This document shows, piece after piece, positions 803-36,038 of a stretch of DNA of 45,838 bases. The translations under genes were made by a program, and so were the position numbers. Under the pieces are notes generated by a model. The model saw only the letters and a program-made list of their open reading frames with translations. It was not told the origin of the DNA and did not search any database. The stretch is taken from the NCBI GenBank assembly GCA_014143165.1, contig GCA_014143165.1_4843.1. The stretch is one strand, 5' to 3'. Position 1 is the first letter of the stretch. Each line of letters begins with the position of its first letter. The DNA is from a phage.

Positions 803-4603
<3,801 letters not shown>

Positions 4604-12075: not shown

Positions 12076-12241
12076 TATTTTTTACCGCGCGATGGTGAGC
12101 GGGCAGAGCCGTTTGGTTTCACTGCGCCAGTTTTGCCGCCAGTTTTGGTATTGCCAGTAGCGCGAGAACGAGACGGACCGTTTGTTGAACCCATGTTCAA
12201 ATCTCCTGTTGTTTGATTAGCATGATTTTAGCATATTCCTG

Positions 12242-12270
12242 TTGACGTAGATTGACGTAGCGTTTATAGT
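12242..12270 (+). promoter_or_regulatory. sigma70-type promoter (TTGACG-17 bp-TATAGT) with tandem TTGACGTAGA
   Basis: TTGACG at 12242-12247 and 12252-12257; TATAGT at 12265-12270; drives the plus-strand ParB/MTase/clamp unit. Confidence 0.45.
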
Positions 12271-12311
12271 TGTTGATGTAGAAACAGCAATAAATGTTAG
12301 AGGTGATGAAA

Positions 12312-12485
12312 ATGGAAGGTGAAACAGAAGTTTTTGCTGTTGATGTTTTTTATCAAGCATCAGACGAAGGCATTCCAGCTCACTGGTGCTGCCAGTTTAT
12401 TCGCGATGGATGGACTGGTTATGAATATTTTGATAACTCAGAAGATGCATATAACTATGCTTACTCACATGGATTTCAAGGATAA
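12312..12485 (+). CDS. hypothetical small protein
   Basis: GAGGTGA RBS 5 nt upstream of ATG 12312; first gene of the operon. Confidence 0.4.
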   Translation: MEGETEVFAVDVFYQASDEGIPAHWCCQFIRDGWTGYEYFDNSEDAYNYAYSHGFQG

Positions 12486-12488
12486 ACA

Positions 12489-13298
12489 ATGAAAACACTC
12501 AGCAAAATATATTCAGACAAAGAAACGCGCAACGGCATCGCTGTTAACAAAACCTATCTCGTGCCAGTTGAGCAAATCTATCTGGAACCGGGCTACAACA
12601 TCCGTGAAGCAGATGAGCAGCATGTGGAATATTTCGCGCAGTGCTGGGAATCAGGTCAGCCACTGCCAGCATTAACAGTTATTCCTGACGAGAAGGGAAT
12701 CCGCATTCTTAATGGTCAGCATCGCTATCTCGGCGAATTGCGTGCCATTGAGCGTGGCGCGCCAATCGTTCGCATTGAGTGTAATGATTTTACAGGAGAC
12801 GAAGCAGATAAAATCGCCTTCATGGTGTCATCCAGTCAGGGTAAGCAGCTCGACCCGTTTGAGCGCGCAAAGGCTTACACGAGACTGAAAGGTTTTGGCT
12901 GGACGAATGAAGAAATCGCCAAAAAGGTAGGCCGCTCAGTATCTGATGTGCAAATGCATCTGTCACTGGGTGATGTTCCAGCGGAAGTGAAAGCGCGCAT
13001 CAGTGCAGGACAAATCAGCTATGCAAATGCCGTAGCGGTAACGCGCGAGCATGGTGATGATGCGGCTAAAGTTATCGACGAGGCAGTCGAAGAGGCCAAA
13101 GCACAAGGCAAAGACAAGGTCACAGCGAAAGTACTGAAGGCGAAAAAGATTAAGCCAGTAGACCGCCTGATTGAGTTATTGAAGCCAGCCGACCATGTGA
13201 TTCTCCCCGCTGGTCATGTGGTGGCAGAGGATGAGGAATTTATCCAGATTCCTGTCGCAGACATTCACGAGGTTATGGCAATTCTGGAGAAGATGTGA
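12489..13298 (+). CDS. ParB-like N-terminal-domain (ParB/Srx fold) DNA-binding protein
   Basis: N-terminal ...VPVEQIYLEPGYNIRE... and ...LNGQHRYLGELRA (ParB GERRxRA-box-like), followed by HTH-like WTNEEIAKKVGRSVSDVQMHLSL. Confidence 0.65.
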   Translation: MKTLSKIYSDKETRNGIAVNKTYLVPVEQIYLEPGYNIREADEQHVEYFAQCWESGQPLPALTVIPDEKGIRILNGQHRYLGELRAIERGAPIVRIECNDFTGDEADKIAFMVSSSQGKQLDPFERAKAYTRLKGFGWTNEEIAKKVGRSVSDVQMHLSLGDVPAEVKARISAGQISYANAVAVTREHGDDAAKVIDEAVEEAKAQGKDKVTAKVLKAKKIKPVDRLIELLKPADHVILPAGHVVAEDEEFIQIPVADIHEVMAILEKM

Positions 13299-14095
13299 TG
13301 ATAGTCCACTACTACAATGAGTGGGACAAGGGCGCAGCGGCATGGCTGCGCGAATTAATTAACAATAAACTAATTCCTTACGGATATGTCGATGAGCGAT
13401 CAATTACCGAAGTCACCCCTTCAGACCTGGAAGGATTTACACAATGTCACTTCTTTGCCGGAATCGGAGGGTGGCCCCTTGCACTCCAGCTGGCAGGAAT
13501 ACCAGAGAGCACTCGACTCTGGACAGGATCACCACCTTGCCAGCCGTTTAGCGTTGCCGGTCAGTCTCGCGGATTTGATGACGAACGACACCTTGCCCCT
13601 GTATTTCTCCGGCTCATCAGAGAGTGCAAACCTGAATTGCTATTTGGAGAGCAGGTTGCGGCAGCAATTGCAAAGCACTGGCTCGACTTTGTATTCCTTA
13701 ACCTGGAAGAAAAAGGCTACACCTGCGGGGCGGCAGTATTGCCAGCTTGCAGCGTCGGCTCTCCACAGGAAAGGAAAAGAACCATCTTTGGCGCGAGGAT
13801 GGGCGACACCAACAGCGCGAGGATGGAAGGATTATGGGAATCTCAGCAAGTCATTTTACAGAAAGGACGGAAAATTCAGGAACGATACTCTTTATCGCCA
13901 GATGTGGCTTCATGTTTATGGGATTCATGGAAACCCAAACATGGAGCAGATAAAGAAACTAGAGTCATACCAGGCGGATTTTGCGAGGCAACTCATGGGG
14001 TATCCGCAAGAGTGGGACGACTGCGCGGTTATGGCAATGCCATAGTTCCACAAGTCGCAGCAGAATTCATTAAAGCATTCATGAGGTCCGTTTAA
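13295..14095 (+). CDS. compact DNA (cytosine-5)-methyltransferase
   Basis: Motif I FFAGIGGW, motif IV GSPPCQPFSVAGQ, motif VI LLFGEQV, motif VIII GSPQERKRTIFGA, motif X GYGNAIVPQVAAEFIKAF. A second open frame (13386..14045) carries a motif-IX-like FARQLMGYPQEW (see findings). Confidence 0.7.
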   Translation: MMIVHYYNEWDKGAAAWLRELINNKLIPYGYVDERSITEVTPSDLEGFTQCHFFAGIGGWPLALQLAGIPESTRLWTGSPPCQPFSVAGQSRGFDDERHLAPVFLRLIRECKPELLFGEQVAAAIAKHWLDFVFLNLEEKGYTCGAAVLPACSVGSPQERKRTIFGARMGDTNSARMEGLWESQQVILQKGRKIQERYSLSPDVASCLWDSWKPKHGADKETRVIPGGFCEATHGVSARVGRLRGYGNAIVPQVAAEFIKAFMRSV

Positions 14096-14268
14096 TGACA
14101 CCAGAACAATTCATCGAAAAACAACTACGCGCCAAACTGCCGGACATCGACCAGATGGCAATTGATGCGGCAATTCAGTATTACAAGCGCAATCAGAGCG
14201 AAAAGAAGGGTGGCATTTTTGAAGAGTGCCTGAAGGTTGCAAAACAACACATGATTAAGGTGAAGTGA
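14095..14268 (+). CDS. hypothetical small protein (57 aa)
   Basis: ATG overlaps the MTase stop (TAATG); ends TGATG overlapping the next start. Confidence 0.3.
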   Translation: MTPEQFIEKQLRAKLPDIDQMAIDAAIQYYKRNQSEKKGGIFEECLKVAKQHMIKVK

Positions 14269-14807
14269 TGAAACTAAAAATCAGCAAATTATTACTTGAA
14301 TCAGCATTAATATTTCAGGCTCGCAACGATGTGCGGTATTACCTGAATGGAATCTGCTTCATGCCTGATGGTCGCATTGCATCAACTGACGGTCATCGCG
14401 CATTTATTGGTGGCAACCATGACAATACGCTGACAGAAAATGTGATTATCAAGATTGGCAAGTCACCAACAAAGCGCTATGACTACGCCATCATTGATAC
14501 CAAAGCGAAAATTGCAACGTATCATGATGAAGCTGGTGTGATGGTTGGCACTGGTATCTGCGAAGAGATTGACGGACGATTCCCGGATATTGACCGCATC
14601 ATTCCGAAGCAGATCTCGCCAACAGAGGAAATTGGCTTCAATGCTGGCTATCTTGTTGATGTCGAGAAAGCTGCGAAGCTATTTAACCCTAGATTATGTG
14701 GAGTTAAGTTTGAATTGAATGGAAATACAAATGCCGCAGTTTGCTGCCTTAGTGCGCCAACTGGCGAAACTGCGAAGATTGTTGTTATGCCGATGAGGAT
14801 TTATTAA
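14268..14807 (+). CDS. truncated DNA polymerase III beta sliding clamp homolog (DnaN domain II plus C-terminal strand)
   Basis: NDVRYYLNGICF...STDGHRA matches DnaN QDVRYYLNGMLFE...ATDGHRLA; DGRFPDIDRIIP matches DGRFPDYRRVLP; EIGFNAGYLVDV matches EIGFNVSYVLDV; C-terminal KIVVMPMRIY matches DnaN's YVVMPMRL. Only about 180 aa versus about 366 for DnaN. Confidence 0.7.
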   Translation: MKLKISKLLLESALIFQARNDVRYYLNGICFMPDGRIASTDGHRAFIGGNHDNTLTENVIIKIGKSPTKRYDYAIIDTKAKIATYHDEAGVMVGTGICEEIDGRFPDIDRIIPKQISPTEEIGFNAGYLVDVEKAAKLFNPRLCGVKFELNGNTNAAVCCLSAPTGETAKIVVMPMRIY

Positions 14808-15088
14808 TGAGTGAAGAGATGAAGCCATGCAGGCTTTGCGGAGTTAAGCAAAGCGGCGTCGATGAACATAATAATGAATACGAAAAACTTGTCAGCCTTG
14901 TTCTTCGTTCTGGAGACGAAAGAGAACTGCTTGAGTTGATTGACCTGATGAGAGGCAAAATAATAACGTCGGTAACAACATCAATTGGTAGCAGTAAGTT
15001 GGCATATGAAAGCCGCGAACTTTATCATGTTCAAGTCATGCATGACGCAATATCTTTACTGCGTGAAAAGCTAATTTCCAGACAGTAA
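14807..15088 (+). CDS. hypothetical protein
   Basis: 93-aa ORF, start overlaps the upstream stop; last gene before the terminator. Confidence 0.4.
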   Translation: MSEEMKPCRLCGVKQSGVDEHNNEYEKLVSLVLRSGDERELLELIDLMRGKIITSVTTSIGSSKLAYESRELYHVQVMHDAISLLREKLISRQ

Positions 15089-15092
15089 ACCA

Positions 15093-15120
15093 AAGCCCCT
15101 TTACGGGGCTTTTCTTTTAT
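15093..15120 (+). terminator. rho-independent terminator
   Basis: GCCCC-TTTA-CGGGGC hairpin plus TTTTCTTTTAT; nearly identical to the terminator at 8336-8362. Confidence 0.6.
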
Positions 15121-15980
15121 CACGCCAGATAAGTATCATCCTCAAACCACGAGACATACGCATTGATATTCTGCACCGCAGTATCCAGTGATGTTATGCG
15201 AAGCAAATACGTCGTATTTGGTGCCATGATAATCTGCTCGCCGAGTTTCGCCTGCGAGTTACCCTGACCCTGATTCGATGCGTTGCCCTCACTGTACGTC
15301 GCCGCCACCGTCAGCTGCCCAATACTTGTGATTGTAGAGCCAGTCAGAAGCTGCGCCGTAGCTGCCTGCGGCGTTATGTCGTTTGGGTTGTTAATCTCTG
15401 CCGCCGTACCGCCAGTGGCAACCGCGCCGCGATAGATTGATGCAACAACACCTTTCCCCGTATAACCAATAATGCGCTGGTTGAATATCACCTGCTTTGT
15501 TCCGGTGATAAAGATGCTGTCAAGGTTTGAGCTGCCAGCGACATCAGTTACTCTGCGCGACGCAGTGAACAGCTTGCCTTGCTTATTGGCGCGTTCAATA
15601 TATGACTGCGTGGTGATGTCGCTTAGCGCAACATCTGGCTGAAGGTTTACCACCGATTGCGGAGACACGCCAGCTCGCCACGCCGAAACGCGCAGCGAGT
15701 TTACTGCCGCTGGCAATTCAGTTTTGATTATCTTCAGGCGCAGCGCTACGCCGTAATAATTATTATTGTTGACGTCAATCCAGTAGTTGCCAGACTCAAA
15801 TGGCGACACCTTCACGGACACGGTTCCGCTCACCAACGGCGTGTATGCGCCAGATGAATTAAGCGGCATCACGTTAACCTGTAGCGCAGTCCAGTCAGCG
15901 GACATCAGCTCGTCAAGCGTCACCTCGCCGTCATCCCGCGTGGTGAATATGTCGTATCTTACAGCCATAGAAACCCCCAA
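15120..15980 (-). CDS. putative virion structural protein (unknown role)
   Basis: 286-aa Thr/Ser/Gly-rich ORF between the capsid gene and the connector genes. Confidence 0.35.
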   Translation of the reverse strand: MGVSMAVRYDIFTTRDDGEVTLDELMSADWTALQVNVMPLNSSGAYTPLVSGTVSVKVSPFESGNYWIDVNNNNYYGVALRLKIIKTELPAAVNSLRVSAWRAGVSPQSVVNLQPDVALSDITTQSYIERANKQGKLFTASRRVTDVAGSSNLDSIFITGTKQVIFNQRIIGYTGKGVVASIYRGAVATGGTAAEINNPNDITPQAATAQLLTGSTITSIGQLTVAATYSEGNASNQGQGNSQAKLGEQIIMAPNTTYLLRITSLDTAVQNINAYVSWFEDDTYLA

Positions 15981-19112: not shown

Positions 19113-20510
19113 ATGCCGAAGAAGATGACTATTGATGAGCTCAAAGAAAAGATTCGTAGCGTTCATGGCGAGACGTATGAGTATGATTTTCATACCTTCC
19201 ATGGCTGCCACTCACCAATGAAAATAGTATGCAAAAAGCATGGGGAATTCTGGCAAAAGCCATCCAAACACCTTCATGGTCAGGGGTGTGCAAAGTGCCA
19301 AAGGGGCGTTATTTCTGTCGATGACTTCAAATCAATGGCCTCCGCTATTCATGACGGGAAATATGACTATAGCAAGGTTTTTTTTGAAGCGTTTTCAAGG
19401 GCAAAGATAACAATCGGATGCCCGATTCATGGGTGGTTTGAGCAATTGGCCTACATTCATCTGAAGAGGGGTAATGGATGCCCAAGGTGTGGAGATGAGA
19501 GATCGAGAAAAGCCAAGTTAAAAAAGTTCAGCAATTTTGTTGATGATGCGAAATACGTCCATGGTGATAAGTATGAGTATTCCCCGAATGGTTTTACTGG
19601 TTCTCGAGGCAAGATTAATATCTTATGTCCTACACATGGTGAGTTTACTCAAGGTGCCGCAAATCACCTGGCTGGTAATGGGTGCCCATCGTGCGCAAGA
19701 GTGATGTCAAACATAGAAGCCGATATCCTTGCATTTGTTAAGTCACTGGACCCACATGTGATCAGCAGGGATAGAGCAACGATAGCACCATATGAACTGG
19801 ATATAGTCTCAAGAGCAAAATCATTAGCCATAGAGGTAAACGGCACATACTGGCACTCGGAGAGGGCTGGGAAAGATAGGTTATATCACAAAATGAAAAG
19901 AGAGATGGTTGAAGAATCTGGGATGAGATTGATAAGCATAAGAAGTGATATATGGAGAGATAAGCGCGAATTAGTAGAGGAAATAATAATTAATGCCATG
20001 GGGGCATCTGAGAGCAGGAAGGTTGACGCAAGAAAGTGCACCATTAAAGATGTATCACCATCTGAATCAAGGGCTTTTCTTGATAGATACCATGTTATGG
20101 GAGGGAGGAATGCCAGTAGGCACTTCGGTTTATTTTGTGGCGGTGAACTGGTATCTGTTATGTCATTTACAGTAAGGAAAGGTTCTGTTGAGTTAGTTAG
20201 ATTCGCATCTAAATGCAATGTTCGTGGTGGGTTAACAAAGATGCTAAAACACTGCTCATCAGTTGTTGGTTTTGATAAGTGTTTCAGCTATGTAGACCTT
20301 GATTTGTTTACCGGTAAATCATACCTCTTAGCTGGCTTTAAAGCTGTAAGCATAAAACCCGGATTCGCGATTGTTAACGGAAATCATGTGGAATCAAGGC
20401 AAAAGTGGAATAAGGCACCTAATGGCATGACTCAGAGCGAATGGTACGAATCTGAAGGCGTAAGCAGGATATGGGATAGCGGACAAATGAGAATAGAGTG
20501 GAGTAAATAG
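19113..20510 (+). CDS. endonuclease-like protein: three tandem zinc-ribbon repeats, PD-(D/E)xK (Vsr-like) core, unknown C-terminal domain
   Basis: Three repeats of C-x2-HG-x-F-x-Q...HL-x-G-x-GCP-x-C; nuclease-like YELDIV...LAIEVNGTYWHSE; about 140-aa C-terminal domain of unknown fold; inserted antisense between structural genes. Confidence 0.55.
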   Translation: MPKKMTIDELKEKIRSVHGETYEYDFHTFHGCHSPMKIVCKKHGEFWQKPSKHLHGQGCAKCQRGVISVDDFKSMASAIHDGKYDYSKVFFEAFSRAKITIGCPIHGWFEQLAYIHLKRGNGCPRCGDERSRKAKLKKFSNFVDDAKYVHGDKYEYSPNGFTGSRGKINILCPTHGEFTQGAANHLAGNGCPSCARVMSNIEADILAFVKSLDPHVISRDRATIAPYELDIVSRAKSLAIEVNGTYWHSERAGKDRLYHKMKREMVEESGMRLISIRSDIWRDKRELVEEIIINAMGASESRKVDARKCTIKDVSPSESRAFLDRYHVMGGRNASRHFGLFCGGELVSVMSFTVRKGSVELVRFASKCNVRGGLTKMLKHCSSVVGFDKCFSYVDLDLFTGKSYLLAGFKAVSIKPGFAIVNGNHVESRQKWNKAPNGMTQSEWYESEGVSRIWDSGQMRIEWSK

Positions 20511-22858: not shown

Positions 22859-22958
22859 TTCCACATCACCTTTTCCGTTGTGGTACAATCTACGTCAATA
22901 AGTATTGACTAAATGATGTAGATTGGTCAACAATAATTTCCGAAAAGGAGTAGTAAAT

Positions 22959-25906: not shown

Positions 25907-25937
25907 TTGACGTAGATTGAGTGGTGGTGCATAGTAT
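25907..25937 (+). promoter_or_regulatory. sigma70-type promoter with TTGACGTAGATTG element
   Basis: TTGACG 25907-25912 followed by TAGATTG; TAGTAT about 19 bp downstream; precedes the plus-strand unit 25968-27369. Confidence 0.45.
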
Positions 25938-25967
25938 CTACATCAAATGACGAATGAGGAATAAAAG

Positions 25968-36009: not shown

Positions 36010-36038
36010 AATCTACATCAGATGTGATTCTACGTCAA
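36010..36038 (-). promoter_or_regulatory. sigma70-type promoter (minus strand; TTGACG-17 bp-TAGATT)
   Basis: Minus-strand TTGACG (36038..36033), 17-bp spacer, TAGATT (36015..36010); first gene ATG at 35979 with GAGG RBS. Confidence 0.5.

Follow-up and report, generated by a model that had tools for sequence, protein, structure and literature searches.

The analysed window, i.e., the whole 45,838-nt stretch of DNA, derives from a lytic siphovirus of the Skatevirus type with a genome of about 46 kb. According to the ORF listing, six plus-strand genes form an operon at positions 12294-15088: g63, a ParB-like gene, a C5-cytosine methyltransferase gene, g57, a short homologue of the beta clamp gene (mini-clamp) and gene 6. 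Five of the six are joined by stop/start overlaps of 1-4 nt (GTGA, TAATG), and a gap of 3 nt separates g63 from the ParB-like gene. The flanking genes are structural and lie on the minus strand, so that the operon is antisense to them; the tight packing and the orientation given in the earlier note were both confirmed.

A sigma-70-like promoter (12242..12270, plus strand; TTGACG, a 17-nt spacer and TATAGT, 10 of 12 matches) is located within a 90-nt divergent intergenic region. The TTGACG site proposed earlier is thus present; as promoter-like sites were not more numerous across the region than in shuffled sequences (5 vs 5.7), its function is suggested by its position only. The strong terminator expected at the other end was found as a bidirectional intrinsic terminator (15092..15112; AAAGCCCCTTTACGGGGCTTT and a T-run), which scored on both strands and is common to the operon and the convergent minus-strand gene.

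The first gene, g63 (12294..12485, plus strand), encodes a small protein of 63 aa as listed, with its likely true start at 12312, preceded by GAGG; it is assigned to phrog_37822 (1.9e-16), and no match was obtained in Pfam or NCBIfam. The gene g57 (14095..14268, plus strand; 57 aa, phrog_4439) lies upstream of the mini-clamp gene and is linked to it in this clade. It was cleanly removed in most genome-reduced mutants of phage seszw and is therefore dispensable in the laboratory. The ParB-like and mini-clamp genes are kept in every listed mutant, which fits a core rather than an accessory role, although genes judged essential by homology were not targeted in that study. The last gene, gene 6 (14807..15088, plus strand; 93 aa), is missing from close relatives, no relatives were detected in the libraries searched, and it represents variable 3' cargo.

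The ParB/Spo0J/KorB-like DNA-binding protein (12489..13298, plus strand; 269 aa) consists of an N-terminal ParB/Srx-type domain followed by an HTH, the same order as in chromosomal and plasmid ParB-Spo0J, Noc and KorB. The profile check upheld this assignment: PF17762 (HTH_ParB) scored 44 bits against a cut-off of 22.6, KorB PF08535 scored 26.5 bits, also above the Pfam cut-off, phrog_1033 matched at 3e-88, and residues 40-201 (about 160 residues) align with Thermus thermophilus Spo0J 1vz0 (E=2e-11). However, the protein differs from chromosomal and plasmid ParB in several respects. The CTP-binding site GERRxRA aligns as NGQHRYLG, in which the G and the second R are kept and GERR is changed to GQHR. 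No ParA-like gene is present in Bas77, a relative with full annotation, nor do the large ORFs of the window include one, and no obvious parS was recognised. Moreover, the protein is encoded by a lytic phage, in which a need for partition is not obvious.

The promoter is overlapped by an operator-like motif, TTGAYGTAGA(T), with three copies on the plus strand at 12242, 12252 and 12273 (12242..12281). The sequence TTGACGTAG occurs in five exact copies in the window, compared with about 0.35 expected from its length, and all of them fall in four divergent intergenic regions, each paired with TTGATGTAGA. It is possible, if rather doubtful, that the ParB-like protein regulates transcription in the manner of KorB at the divergent promoters of the phage, including its own, and is not a partition or targeting factor. 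The KorB domain match, the lack of a ParA partner in the whole annotated genome of the relative, the retention of the gene in all listed reduced mutants, and the motif pairs that overlap the -35 element of the operon promoter and are found again in three further divergent intergenic regions are consistent with such a regulator. However, these motifs are only candidate sites for the protein; they consist of 10-mers in direct or inverted orientation, do not form a 16-bp palindrome like parS or OB, and may simply be an extended -35 element.

The methyltransferase gene (13295..14095, plus strand) encodes an alpha chain of 266 aa that carries in one frame motifs I (FAGIGG), IV (PPCQPFS), VI (GEQV), VIII (PQERKR) and X (GNAIVPQVA). 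The profile check agreed with the C5-methyltransferase call (PF00145, 78.4 bits against a cut-off of 22; phrog_363 at 1.5e-73), and the superfamily model TIGR00675 gave 61.7 bits, under its cut-off of 100.65. The best Foldseek matches to the AF2 model were M.HhaI, M.HaeIII and DNMTs, which share the catalytic-domain fold. The variable region (TRD) and motif IX, looked for between motifs VIII and X, are not found in this chain; residues 172-240 are unconserved and modelled with low confidence, and residues 1-170 and 241-266 are modelled confidently. The gene is an orphan phage gene with no restriction partner.

The methylase gene described earlier as compact contains a second ORF nested in its +1 frame (13386..14045, plus strand). 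Its 219-aa product, a putative beta chain, carries a WxTP module and the string ARQLMGYPQEW, is assigned to phrog_1008 (4e-20) and has 211 database homologues. The pattern LMG[YF]PxxW, with LNP or LES ahead of it, is conserved in the +1 frame across the methylase loci, and we take it to be motif IX by comparison with the RECARVMGYPDSY motif of M.HhaI. Residues 77-125 and 195-214 of the beta chain were modelled confidently by AF2, and residues 127-194 with low confidence. In essentially all of about 70 related loci (38-95% amino acid identity) the +1 frame holds a single open run of 220-450 codons, whereas stops number 8-25 in the +2 frame and 0-22 in the reverse frames. A tblastn search with the +1 product as the query found +1-frame homology in nearly all methylase loci.

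The patterns of substitution showed that the nested ORF is under selection. In the N-terminal, core and motif X regions, substitutions are most frequent at the third position of alpha codons; in the middle and pre-X regions the maximum lies at alpha position 1, which is beta position 3. Divergence at fourfold sites between the same genome pairs was 0.103 in the overlapped alpha core, compared with 0.383 in the ParB-like gene and 0.319 in the mini-clamp gene; within the methylase gene, for all clusters, it was 0.19 under the overlap and 0.29-0.41 elsewhere. Synonymous change in alpha is suppressed 2-3.5-fold where beta overlaps it. In one cluster (L008), a duplication splits motif IX of beta from the pre-X motif of alpha, and each survives in its own frame only.

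These results make it improbable that the +1 ORF is an untranslated shadow cast by the alpha frame, with the 266-aa protein as a complete monomeric enzyme. For such a shadow it may be argued that some conserved beta strings are frame-shifted alpha motifs (LPESEGG from FAGIGGW, CAVMAMP from LRGYGNAIV), that Pfam and NCBIfam contain no model for beta, and that shuffling of synonymous codons by itself yields +1 ORFs of considerable length (79-188 codons on average). However, the observed length was matched in only 0-5 of 2000 shuffles (38 of 2000 in one lineage) and exceeds nearly all shuffles in independent lineages, the substitution phase in the alpha middle tracks the beta frame, and the alpha chain, with its unconserved and predicted disordered middle, has no motif IX of its own. 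The biochemically proven precedent of M.EcoHK31I also stands against it.

Likewise improbable is a single polypeptide that arises through two programmed frameshifts, one into +1 past motif VIII and one back ahead of motif X, with the canonical order I-VIII, TRD, IX and X restored. The spliced sequence does resemble a canonical enzyme and extends the phrog_116 alignment to the whole length, and one database protein (P0033) is a fusion of an alpha N-terminus with a beta C-terminus. However, P0033 fuses ahead of motif VI and would be without motifs VI, VIII and X; neither junction shows an evident slippery sequence; and in this phage motif IX would be separated from GNA by only 6 residues. An open alpha middle, or a beta frame open for about 100 codons before the switch, would not be needed, yet both are open in about 70 loci. 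Moreover, splicing the alpha and beta segments into the canonical order brought no gain in PF00145 or PHROG scores, so that the case for beta being homologous to canonical small domains depends on its motif IX pattern.

The arrangement that we favour, two nested genes, matches the known architecture of M.EcoHK31I, reportedly described by Lee et al. in 1995 as a heterodimeric (alpha/beta) C5-cytosine methyltransferase. The methylase would look compact because its second chain is encoded in the +1 frame inside the same DNA. This putative second protein, made probably from one of several internal starts, would bring a small-domain or hinge element with motif IX, and the two chains would associate to give the active enzyme. 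Evolutionary conservation and precedent point to the beta product, and docking of the chains is hypothetical. We infer the association of the chains and, with it, any methylation target.

In M.EcoHK31I the whole beta chain is specified by another frame of the alpha gene, contains motif IX and has a dispensable N-terminus and internal starts (PMC2836561, PMC3404938). Compared by described architecture, the likeness extends to an alpha chain with motifs I-VIII plus X as well as to a dispensable or unstructured N-terminal part of beta with several usable internal start codons; no match by the name M.EcoHK31I was found among plasmids. Unlike M.EcoHK31I, in which the TRD is reported in alpha, the phage enzyme has a conserved variable region (WPTP modules) in beta, is an orphan, and its nested architecture is conserved across about 70 loci of phages, Mu-like ones among them. 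M.AquI is likewise a natural two-chain C5 methyltransferase whose chains must associate, but it is split inside the variable region, so that its small chain carries motif IX as well as motif X (PMC3404938); in the sources consulted on M.AquI, no description was found of one ORF fully nested in the other. For hundreds of phage and prophage genes of this family, the annotation gives one "DNA cytosine methyltransferase" protein each, and the probable second subunit escapes Pfam, NCBIfam and standard gene callers. The nested ORF bears on the expression of such enzymes, on the prediction of their specificity and on the count of overlapping phage genes.

The mini-clamp gene (14265..14807, plus strand) encodes 180 aa, compared with 366 aa in DnaN of E. 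coli (PDB 1MMI/2POL), to which it is homologous in sequence and fold. A phmmer search against the PDB gave E=1e-13 to enterobacterial beta clamps, and the AF2 model, a compact monomer (pLDDT 96.6, pTM 0.91), was closest to E. coli beta in Foldseek. The Pfam DnaN domain matches of 17 and 16 bits fall under the gathering score of 27, and the DnaN equivalog TIGR00663 gave 32 bits against a cut-off of 138. The clamp homology proposed earlier was supported by phmmer and Foldseek, but of the two domains named, 2 and 3, the latter is represented only by its C-terminal half. The label of RusA Holliday-junction resolvase carried by phrog_3007 and by many GenBank records was rejected as a propagated mis-annotation, since sequence and predicted structure are those of a beta clamp.

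The protein covers clamp beta residues of about 136-252 and 311-366, i.e., domain II and the C-terminal half of domain III. All of domain I and the residues of about 253-310 are absent, including the interface residues I78, F106, I272, L273, E298 and E304, and in the model a loop takes the place of the second inner helix of domain II. Three clamp domains, a head-to-tail dimer and a closed ring were looked for and are not features of this protein; it cannot form the canonical beta ring because domain I and the half of domain III that make the dimer interface are missing. In contrast to the interface, the pocket for clamp-binding motifs (subsites I and II) is intact. Fifteen of its 18 listed residues are identical (R152, L155, T172, G174, H175, R176, P242, R246, V360, M362, N320, Y323, P363, M364 and R365), among them the C-terminal MPMR shared with DnaN, and three are changed conservatively (L177A, V247I and V344T). 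Among 84 family members with a mean column identity of 24%, 23 positions are conserved at 75% or more; 11 of these are pocket residues and six more are adjacent to the pocket, so that the pocket comprises the most conserved positions of the family.

Clustering of the family at 50% identity gives at least 189 groups, whose members nearly all measure 170-215 aa. The mini-clamp occurs in 301 deposited phage genomes, where existing annotations call it "DNA polymerase III beta subunit" or "beta clamp domain protein", so the view of the clamp fragment as an unusual addition did not survive. The family is mildly basic (median pI 8.4), and DNA contact is therefore possible. The replication set of the phage consists of a primase, an SNF2-type helicase, Sak4, Gam and SSB; no DNA polymerase or clamp loader is found among its genes, and no clamp-binding motif was found in its replication proteins.

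Interference with host replication or repair factors, suggested earlier, is a viable candidate role, and the conservation of the pocket strengthens it. The mini-clamp may act as a soluble, monomeric, pocket-only decoy or adaptor that keeps the hydrophobic pocket for QLxLF-type clamp-binding motifs. It would capture host clamp-binding proteins, the candidates being clamp-loader delta, Pol III alpha/epsilon, Hda, MutS/MutL and translesion polymerases, and host replication and repair would be redirected or disabled in a phage with no polymerase of its own. We tentatively regard the family as an unrecognised class of phage host-takeover proteins, ring-less and pocket-only copies of the clamp that titrate or re-route its host partners, although the odds are somewhat against it. 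We infer ligand binding by the pocket and its consequence, as well as the timing of expression. The affinity of the beta monomer for delta is about 50 times that of the dimer (PMC11139829).

An unlikely role, although less so than the rejected readings of the methylase, is that of a true processivity factor, which would form a new ring, e.g., of four 1.5-domain protomers, or cap host beta, and tether the host polymerase to phage DNA. Both the fold and the pocket match those of a polymerase tether, a phage with no polymerase must use that of its host, and the retention of the gene in all listed reduced mutants and the basic character of the family agree with this role. However, the canonical head-to-tail interface has lost its two halves, the model shows a loop where domain II should have its second inner helix, the compact monomer is predicted very confidently, and the phage has no clamp loader.

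For the decoy or adaptor, parallels exist in phages that act on the clamp itself. Staphylococcal phage clamp inhibitors target the host clamp. These inhibitors and MuC of phage Mu bind the host clamp, whereas the mini-clamp is a clamp fragment and would compete for the partners of the clamp. MuC uses host beta for late transcription (PMC12867686), and the likeness is that a phage acts on the clamp interaction network. Against the decoy it may be said that, by soaking up Pol III or delta, it would also harm a phage that relies on the Pol III of its host. The beta-clamp pocket is a hub of replication, repair and mutagenesis and an antibiotic target. If the decoy or adaptor reading is true, a natural, stable, monomeric pocket module from a phage would represent a new mechanism of host manipulation and a ready reagent to study or inhibit clamp interactions, and it would give small polymerase-less siphoviruses control of host replication and repair.

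The gene-neighbourhood comparison showed that all three genes, i.e., ParB-like, methyltransferase and mini-clamp, occur together in 13 of 82 loci, all 13 of the Skate/Rouf type. The only stable linkage is that of the ParB-like gene, g57 and the mini-clamp gene, and only within this clade. The methyltransferase family occurs without ParB or clamp in Mu-like and many other phages, and Dhillonvirus EP23 and Kagunavirus Snoke carry the mini-clamp by itself, as an isolated antisense gene. The idea of one device thus fails the refutation test set out in the earlier note, because the three genes occur independently; what stood was the linkage of ParB, g57 and clamp within the clade.

It is therefore quite unlikely that the whole operon is one DNA-modification or anti-restriction system in which the ParB-like protein targets the methylase and the clamp to phage DNA. 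ParB proteins and methylases are often paired or fused, an annotated "anti-restriction protein" is among the variable first genes of the operon in relatives, and in Skarpretter the mini-clamp adjoins Dam and a second methyltransferase, all of which would suit such a system. However, besides the independent occurrence of the genes, the methylase-bearing Skateviruses Bas77-80 reportedly show marked sensitivity towards RM systems (PMC11990801). An anti-restriction function is plausible for the variable cargo only.

On balance, we consider it probable that the cluster is one transcription unit but a mosaic and not a single machine, with a two-chain methylase and a decoy or adaptor mini-clamp among its parts. 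The conserved core would be the ParB/KorB-like DNA-binding protein, the dispensable 57-aa protein and the beta-clamp-derived protein, with exchangeable cargo slots at the 5' end, between the ParB-like gene and g57, and at the 3' end. That a seemingly purposeful operon may be a mosaic with cargo slots calls for caution in guilt-by-association inference. In this phage the middle slot would hold the nested two-chain C5-cytosine methyltransferase; in the type Skatevirus LPST10 and in phage seszw, which have the ParB-like gene, g57 and the mini-clamp gene, the same place is taken by a 72-aa gene or by nothing.

About 200 deposited siphovirus genomes match the region at 80-95% identity, among them the BASEL Escherichia phages Bas77-80, Salmonella Skatevirus phages and Klebsiella relatives, and the 45.8 kb window comprises essentially one entire genome of the Skatevirus-like type. 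Its products include a primase, an SNF2-type helicase, a Sak4-like annealase, a Gam-like protein and an SSB; a DNA polymerase was not found among the large ORFs of the window or in the fully annotated relative Bas77. Six plus-strand ORFs span 12294-15088, with junctions that overlap by 1-4 nt; the sole exception is a 3-nt gap between genes 1 and 2. The flanking genes are structural and located on the minus strand. A promoter-like site (TTGACG-17-TATAGT) lies upstream in a short divergent intergenic region, and a G+C-rich hairpin with T-runs on both strands follows downstream. The ORF map, the junctions and the flanking structural genes bear out the antisense operon with promoter and terminator proposed in the earlier note. 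The frequency of promoter-like matches was not above that in shuffled sequences, and the operon promoter is assigned by its position only.

A 286-aa gene of unknown function (phrog_5335; 15120-15980, minus strand) separates the operon terminator from the capsid genes and is missing at the same position in Bas77 and LPST10; this interval is therefore another variable insertion point. A 465-aa HNH/homing-endonuclease gene (phrog_559, 5e-100; 19113-20510, plus strand) adjoins the minus-strand head genes and is probably a mobile insertion.

The ParB, methyltransferase and DnaN-like genes had been proposed as a possible single module, a reading that the gene-neighbourhood comparison does not uphold. 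The survey covered 76 viral loci with methyltransferase relatives together with Mu-like phage contigs, and ParB, the 57-aa gene (14095-14268; g57) and the clamp were present beside a methyltransferase in only 13 of 82 loci, all belonging to the Skate/Rouf clade. The methylase position is occupied by a 72-aa gene in the type species LPST10 and is empty in phage seszw; the first gene varies among relatives ('anti-restriction protein' or a 207-aa protein), while the last gene (93 aa) is absent from them. A total of 301 phage records contain the mini-clamp. Dhillonvirus EP23 and Kagunavirus Snoke carry it as a single gene, antisense to the head genes and equipped with an RBS and terminators of its own, and in Escherichia phage Skarpretter (locus L087, 2756-5264) it occurs among Dam, dUTPase and an unrelated 242-aa methyltransferase. 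Given this independent occurrence and the variable genes, the operon consists of a conserved ParB-g57-clamp core with cargo slots and is not a novel integrated system. Moreover, the BASEL study found these phages, methylase carriers included, to be markedly sensitive to RM systems, which argues against broad anti-restriction by the methylase and to that extent weakens the proposal of a DNA-modification or anti-restriction module. The Skarpretter locus, with the mini-clamp between Dam and the 242-aa methyltransferase, represents a second, independent clamp-methylase neighbourhood.

The CRISPR-based genome reduction of Skatevirus seszw, in which 53 of 81 genes were removable (PMC9825161), yielded mutants whose deposited genomes are as small as 37.7 kb. 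The comparison of mutant 160S (L091) with the wild type (L092) showed the exact deletion of the g57 homolog (about 173 nt), with the ParB and mini-clamp flanks untouched, and the same deletion is present in most of the mutants; g57 is therefore dispensable, and the clamp does not require it as a partner. All seszw mutants listed retain ParB, the first gene and the mini-clamp intact, and this retention is compatible with the importance of ParB and the clamp. It was rejected as proof that they are essential, because genes judged essential by homology were left untargeted in that study (PMC9825161).

The 266-aa product (13295-14095) was correctly recognised in the earlier note as a C5 methyltransferase (PF00145 at 78 bits). 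Its annotated frame, called alpha, contains motifs I, IV, VI, VIII and X, motif IX is absent, and its middle part is low-complexity and unalignable. A +1-frame ORF of 219 codons (beta, 13386-14045), located wholly within the gene, carries WPTP-type modules and a clear motif IX (…ARQLMGYPQEW). The beta ORF matches phrog_1008 ('DNA methyltransferase', 4e-20) and 211 database proteins, the most distant of them at about 30% identity. These 211 matches carry no Pfam domain, one frameshift chimera excepted, and the beta family has no Pfam or NCBIfam model; the NCBIfam search of all operon products gave superfamily-level matches at most.

The comparison of about 70 homologous loci, which are 38-95% identical in the annotated frame, showed an open +1 frame over 80-90% of the gene in essentially all, while 8-25 stops occur in the +2 frame and 0-22 in the reverse frames. 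Synonymous-codon shuffles that keep the alpha protein and its codon composition produced a +1 ORF as long as the natural one in 0-5 of 2000 trials for eight lineages and in 38 of 2000 for the ninth. In 122 sequence pairs, the substitution peak falls on alpha position 3 across the N-terminus, the catalytic core and motif X; in the middle and pre-X regions it falls on alpha position 1, corresponding to position 3 of the +1 codons. Likewise, the divergence of fourfold-degenerate alpha sites is lower by a factor of 2-3.5 within the overlap with the second frame: it is 0.103 in overlapped alpha versus 0.383 in ParB and 0.319 in the clamp for the same genome pairs and, for all clusters, 0.19 in the overlap versus 0.29-0.41 elsewhere within the gene. 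The Klebsiella phage contigs L008-L010 and L013 contain a duplication of about 25 codons near the methylase 3' end (approximately 4250-4480 of each locus), which has pulled the two overlapping codings apart: copy 1 preserves motif IX, in the +1 frame only, and copy 2 preserves the alpha pre-X motif (FPLGKDIPARV…GNAIVP), in the alpha frame only. The overlap has here undergone subfunctionalisation in nature. An open stretch of 83 codons also exists in the +2 frame of the methylase gene, in the motif VIII/WxTP region (13715-13960), compared with 41-66 codons in most relatives, probably as a by-product of the double constraint.

The synthesis of the methylase as a single double-frameshift product is a weaker alternative. 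Both frames stay open far past the putative switch points, and a double frameshift would not explain this openness; no slippery sites were seen at the switch points, and the alpha-beta-alpha sequence spliced to canonical order gained no score against Pfam or PHROGs. This rescoring also lends no support to a canonical homology of beta. M.EcoHK31I is an enzyme that requires two chains, with the first 42 residues of its beta chain being dispensable and internal methionines acting as starts (PMC2836561; PMC3404938). In view of this precedent of one chain nested in the gene of the other, the phage gene probably belongs to the M.EcoHK31I kind or is closely analogous to it, and would thus encode a nested alpha/beta enzyme of a type known but rarely recognised. 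The tblastn search of alpha against plasmids revealed homologs, none of them named EcoHK31I. The prevalence and conservation of the nested arrangement in phages are seemingly not generally appreciated.

Several candidate beta starts were identified, and they differ by lineage: an ATG at alpha codons 30/32, which some clades combine with GGAG; a TTG/ATG at alpha codon 61, whose Shine-Dalgarno sequence would be the GGAGG of motif I; and an ATG at alpha codon 95 with AAGGA, in lineages where a stop further upstream rules out the earlier starts. The AF2 model of alpha, linker and beta, based on a naturally paired alignment of 31 sequences, had an overall pTM of 0.65. The alpha catalytic domain and X helix, the helix-hairpin of beta (residues 77-125) and its motif IX helices (195-214) were confident, while the alpha middle and the first 76 or so residues of beta were disordered; we infer that beta docks onto alpha. 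A Foldseek search with this model recovered the catalytic domain alone and was uninformative on beta. The beta N-terminus was first suspected of being a pure shadow of alpha, an idea dropped on the fourfold-site divergence and the AF2 model.

The 180-aa mini-clamp (14265-14807) falls below the DnaN thresholds of Pfam and NCBIfam. It is homologous to enterobacterial beta clamps (E=1e-13), and the best structural match of its AF2 model (pLDDT 96.6, pTM 0.91; alignment of 84 diverse relatives) is E. coli beta, in agreement with the truncated DnaN homolog suspected from the sequence. The label 'RusA-like Holliday junction resolvase' (phrog_3007) is wrong, as both sequence and structure are beta-clamp-derived; it spreads via phrog_3007 to many Pharokka-annotated genomes. 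The mini-clamp family, with at least 189 representatives at 50% clustering (E<1e-10) and a uniform length of 170-215 aa, is large, annotated and functionally unexplored, and the literature search on phage truncated clamps or decoys found nothing on it.

According to HMMER, mini-clamp residues 8-117 correspond to clamp residues 136-252 (domain II and the interdomain connector) and residues 118-179 to 311-366 (the second beta-alpha-beta-beta-beta half of domain III), so that domain I and approximately residues 253-310 are missing. The residues of the beta dimer interface (I78, F106, I272 and L273 plus R103, E298 and E304; reviewed in PMC11139829) all lie within the missing parts. The pocket that binds clamp-binding motifs comprises subsite I (R152, L155, T172, G174, H175, R176, L177, P242, R246, V247, V360, M362) and subsite II (H175, N320, Y323, V344, M362, P363, M364, R365) (PMC11139829). 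The mini-clamp equivalents are R24, L27, T41, G43, H44, R45, A46, P107, R111, I112, V173 and M175 for subsite I and N126, Y129, T155, P176, M177 and R178 for the rest of subsite II; 15 of the 18 residues are identical and three changes are conservative. The 84-member alignment has a mean column identity of 24%; 23 of its positions are at least 75% conserved, 11 of them in the pocket and 6 adjacent to it. With the pocket conserved and the interface lost, selection therefore kept the docking pocket and shed everything needed for the ring.

This anatomy suggests a decoy or adaptor reduced to the pocket, and the simplest inference is that the mini-clamp would be a soluble module binding QLxLF-type motifs. 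The clamp-loader delta is bound about 50-fold better by beta in its monomeric form than by dimeric beta (PMC11139829), which makes delta an attractive target; Hda, MutS/MutL and translesion polymerases are further candidates. The outcome could be sequestration (host shut-off, repair evasion) or recruitment. The phage itself relies on the host polymerase, which counts against a crude decoy that soaks up Pol III. Assembly of the mini-clamp into a new oligomeric ring would be another, less probable reading. The scan of the phage proteome for clamp-binding motifs gave none credible in replication proteins.

The ParB family assignment of the 269-aa product also stands: the protein has an N-terminal domain and an HTH, with PF17762 and KorB above the cut-off, and residues 40-201 align with Spo0J (E=2e-11). 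The large ORFs of the window and the fully annotated relative Bas77 include no ParA-like gene. A motif of 10-11 nt, TTGAYGTAGAT, occurs in pairs at the operon promoter and in three other divergent intergenic regions (12242-12281; 22890-22898, minus strand; 25907-25946; 36030-36038, minus strand), overlapping the -35 of the operon promoter, and five exact TTGACG TAG 9-mers are present in the window versus about 0.35 expected. The motif looks like an operator or an extended promoter element common to the phage early promoters. Together with the KorB-domain match, the pairs suggest that ParB may be a KorB-like regulator of early promoters, possibly autoregulating the operon, which is a lead rather than a result. 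Directly upstream of the promoter, at 12210-12240, there is a direct repeat, TTAGCAT(N4)TTTAGCAT, containing TTTAGC, a half-site known from KorB operators.
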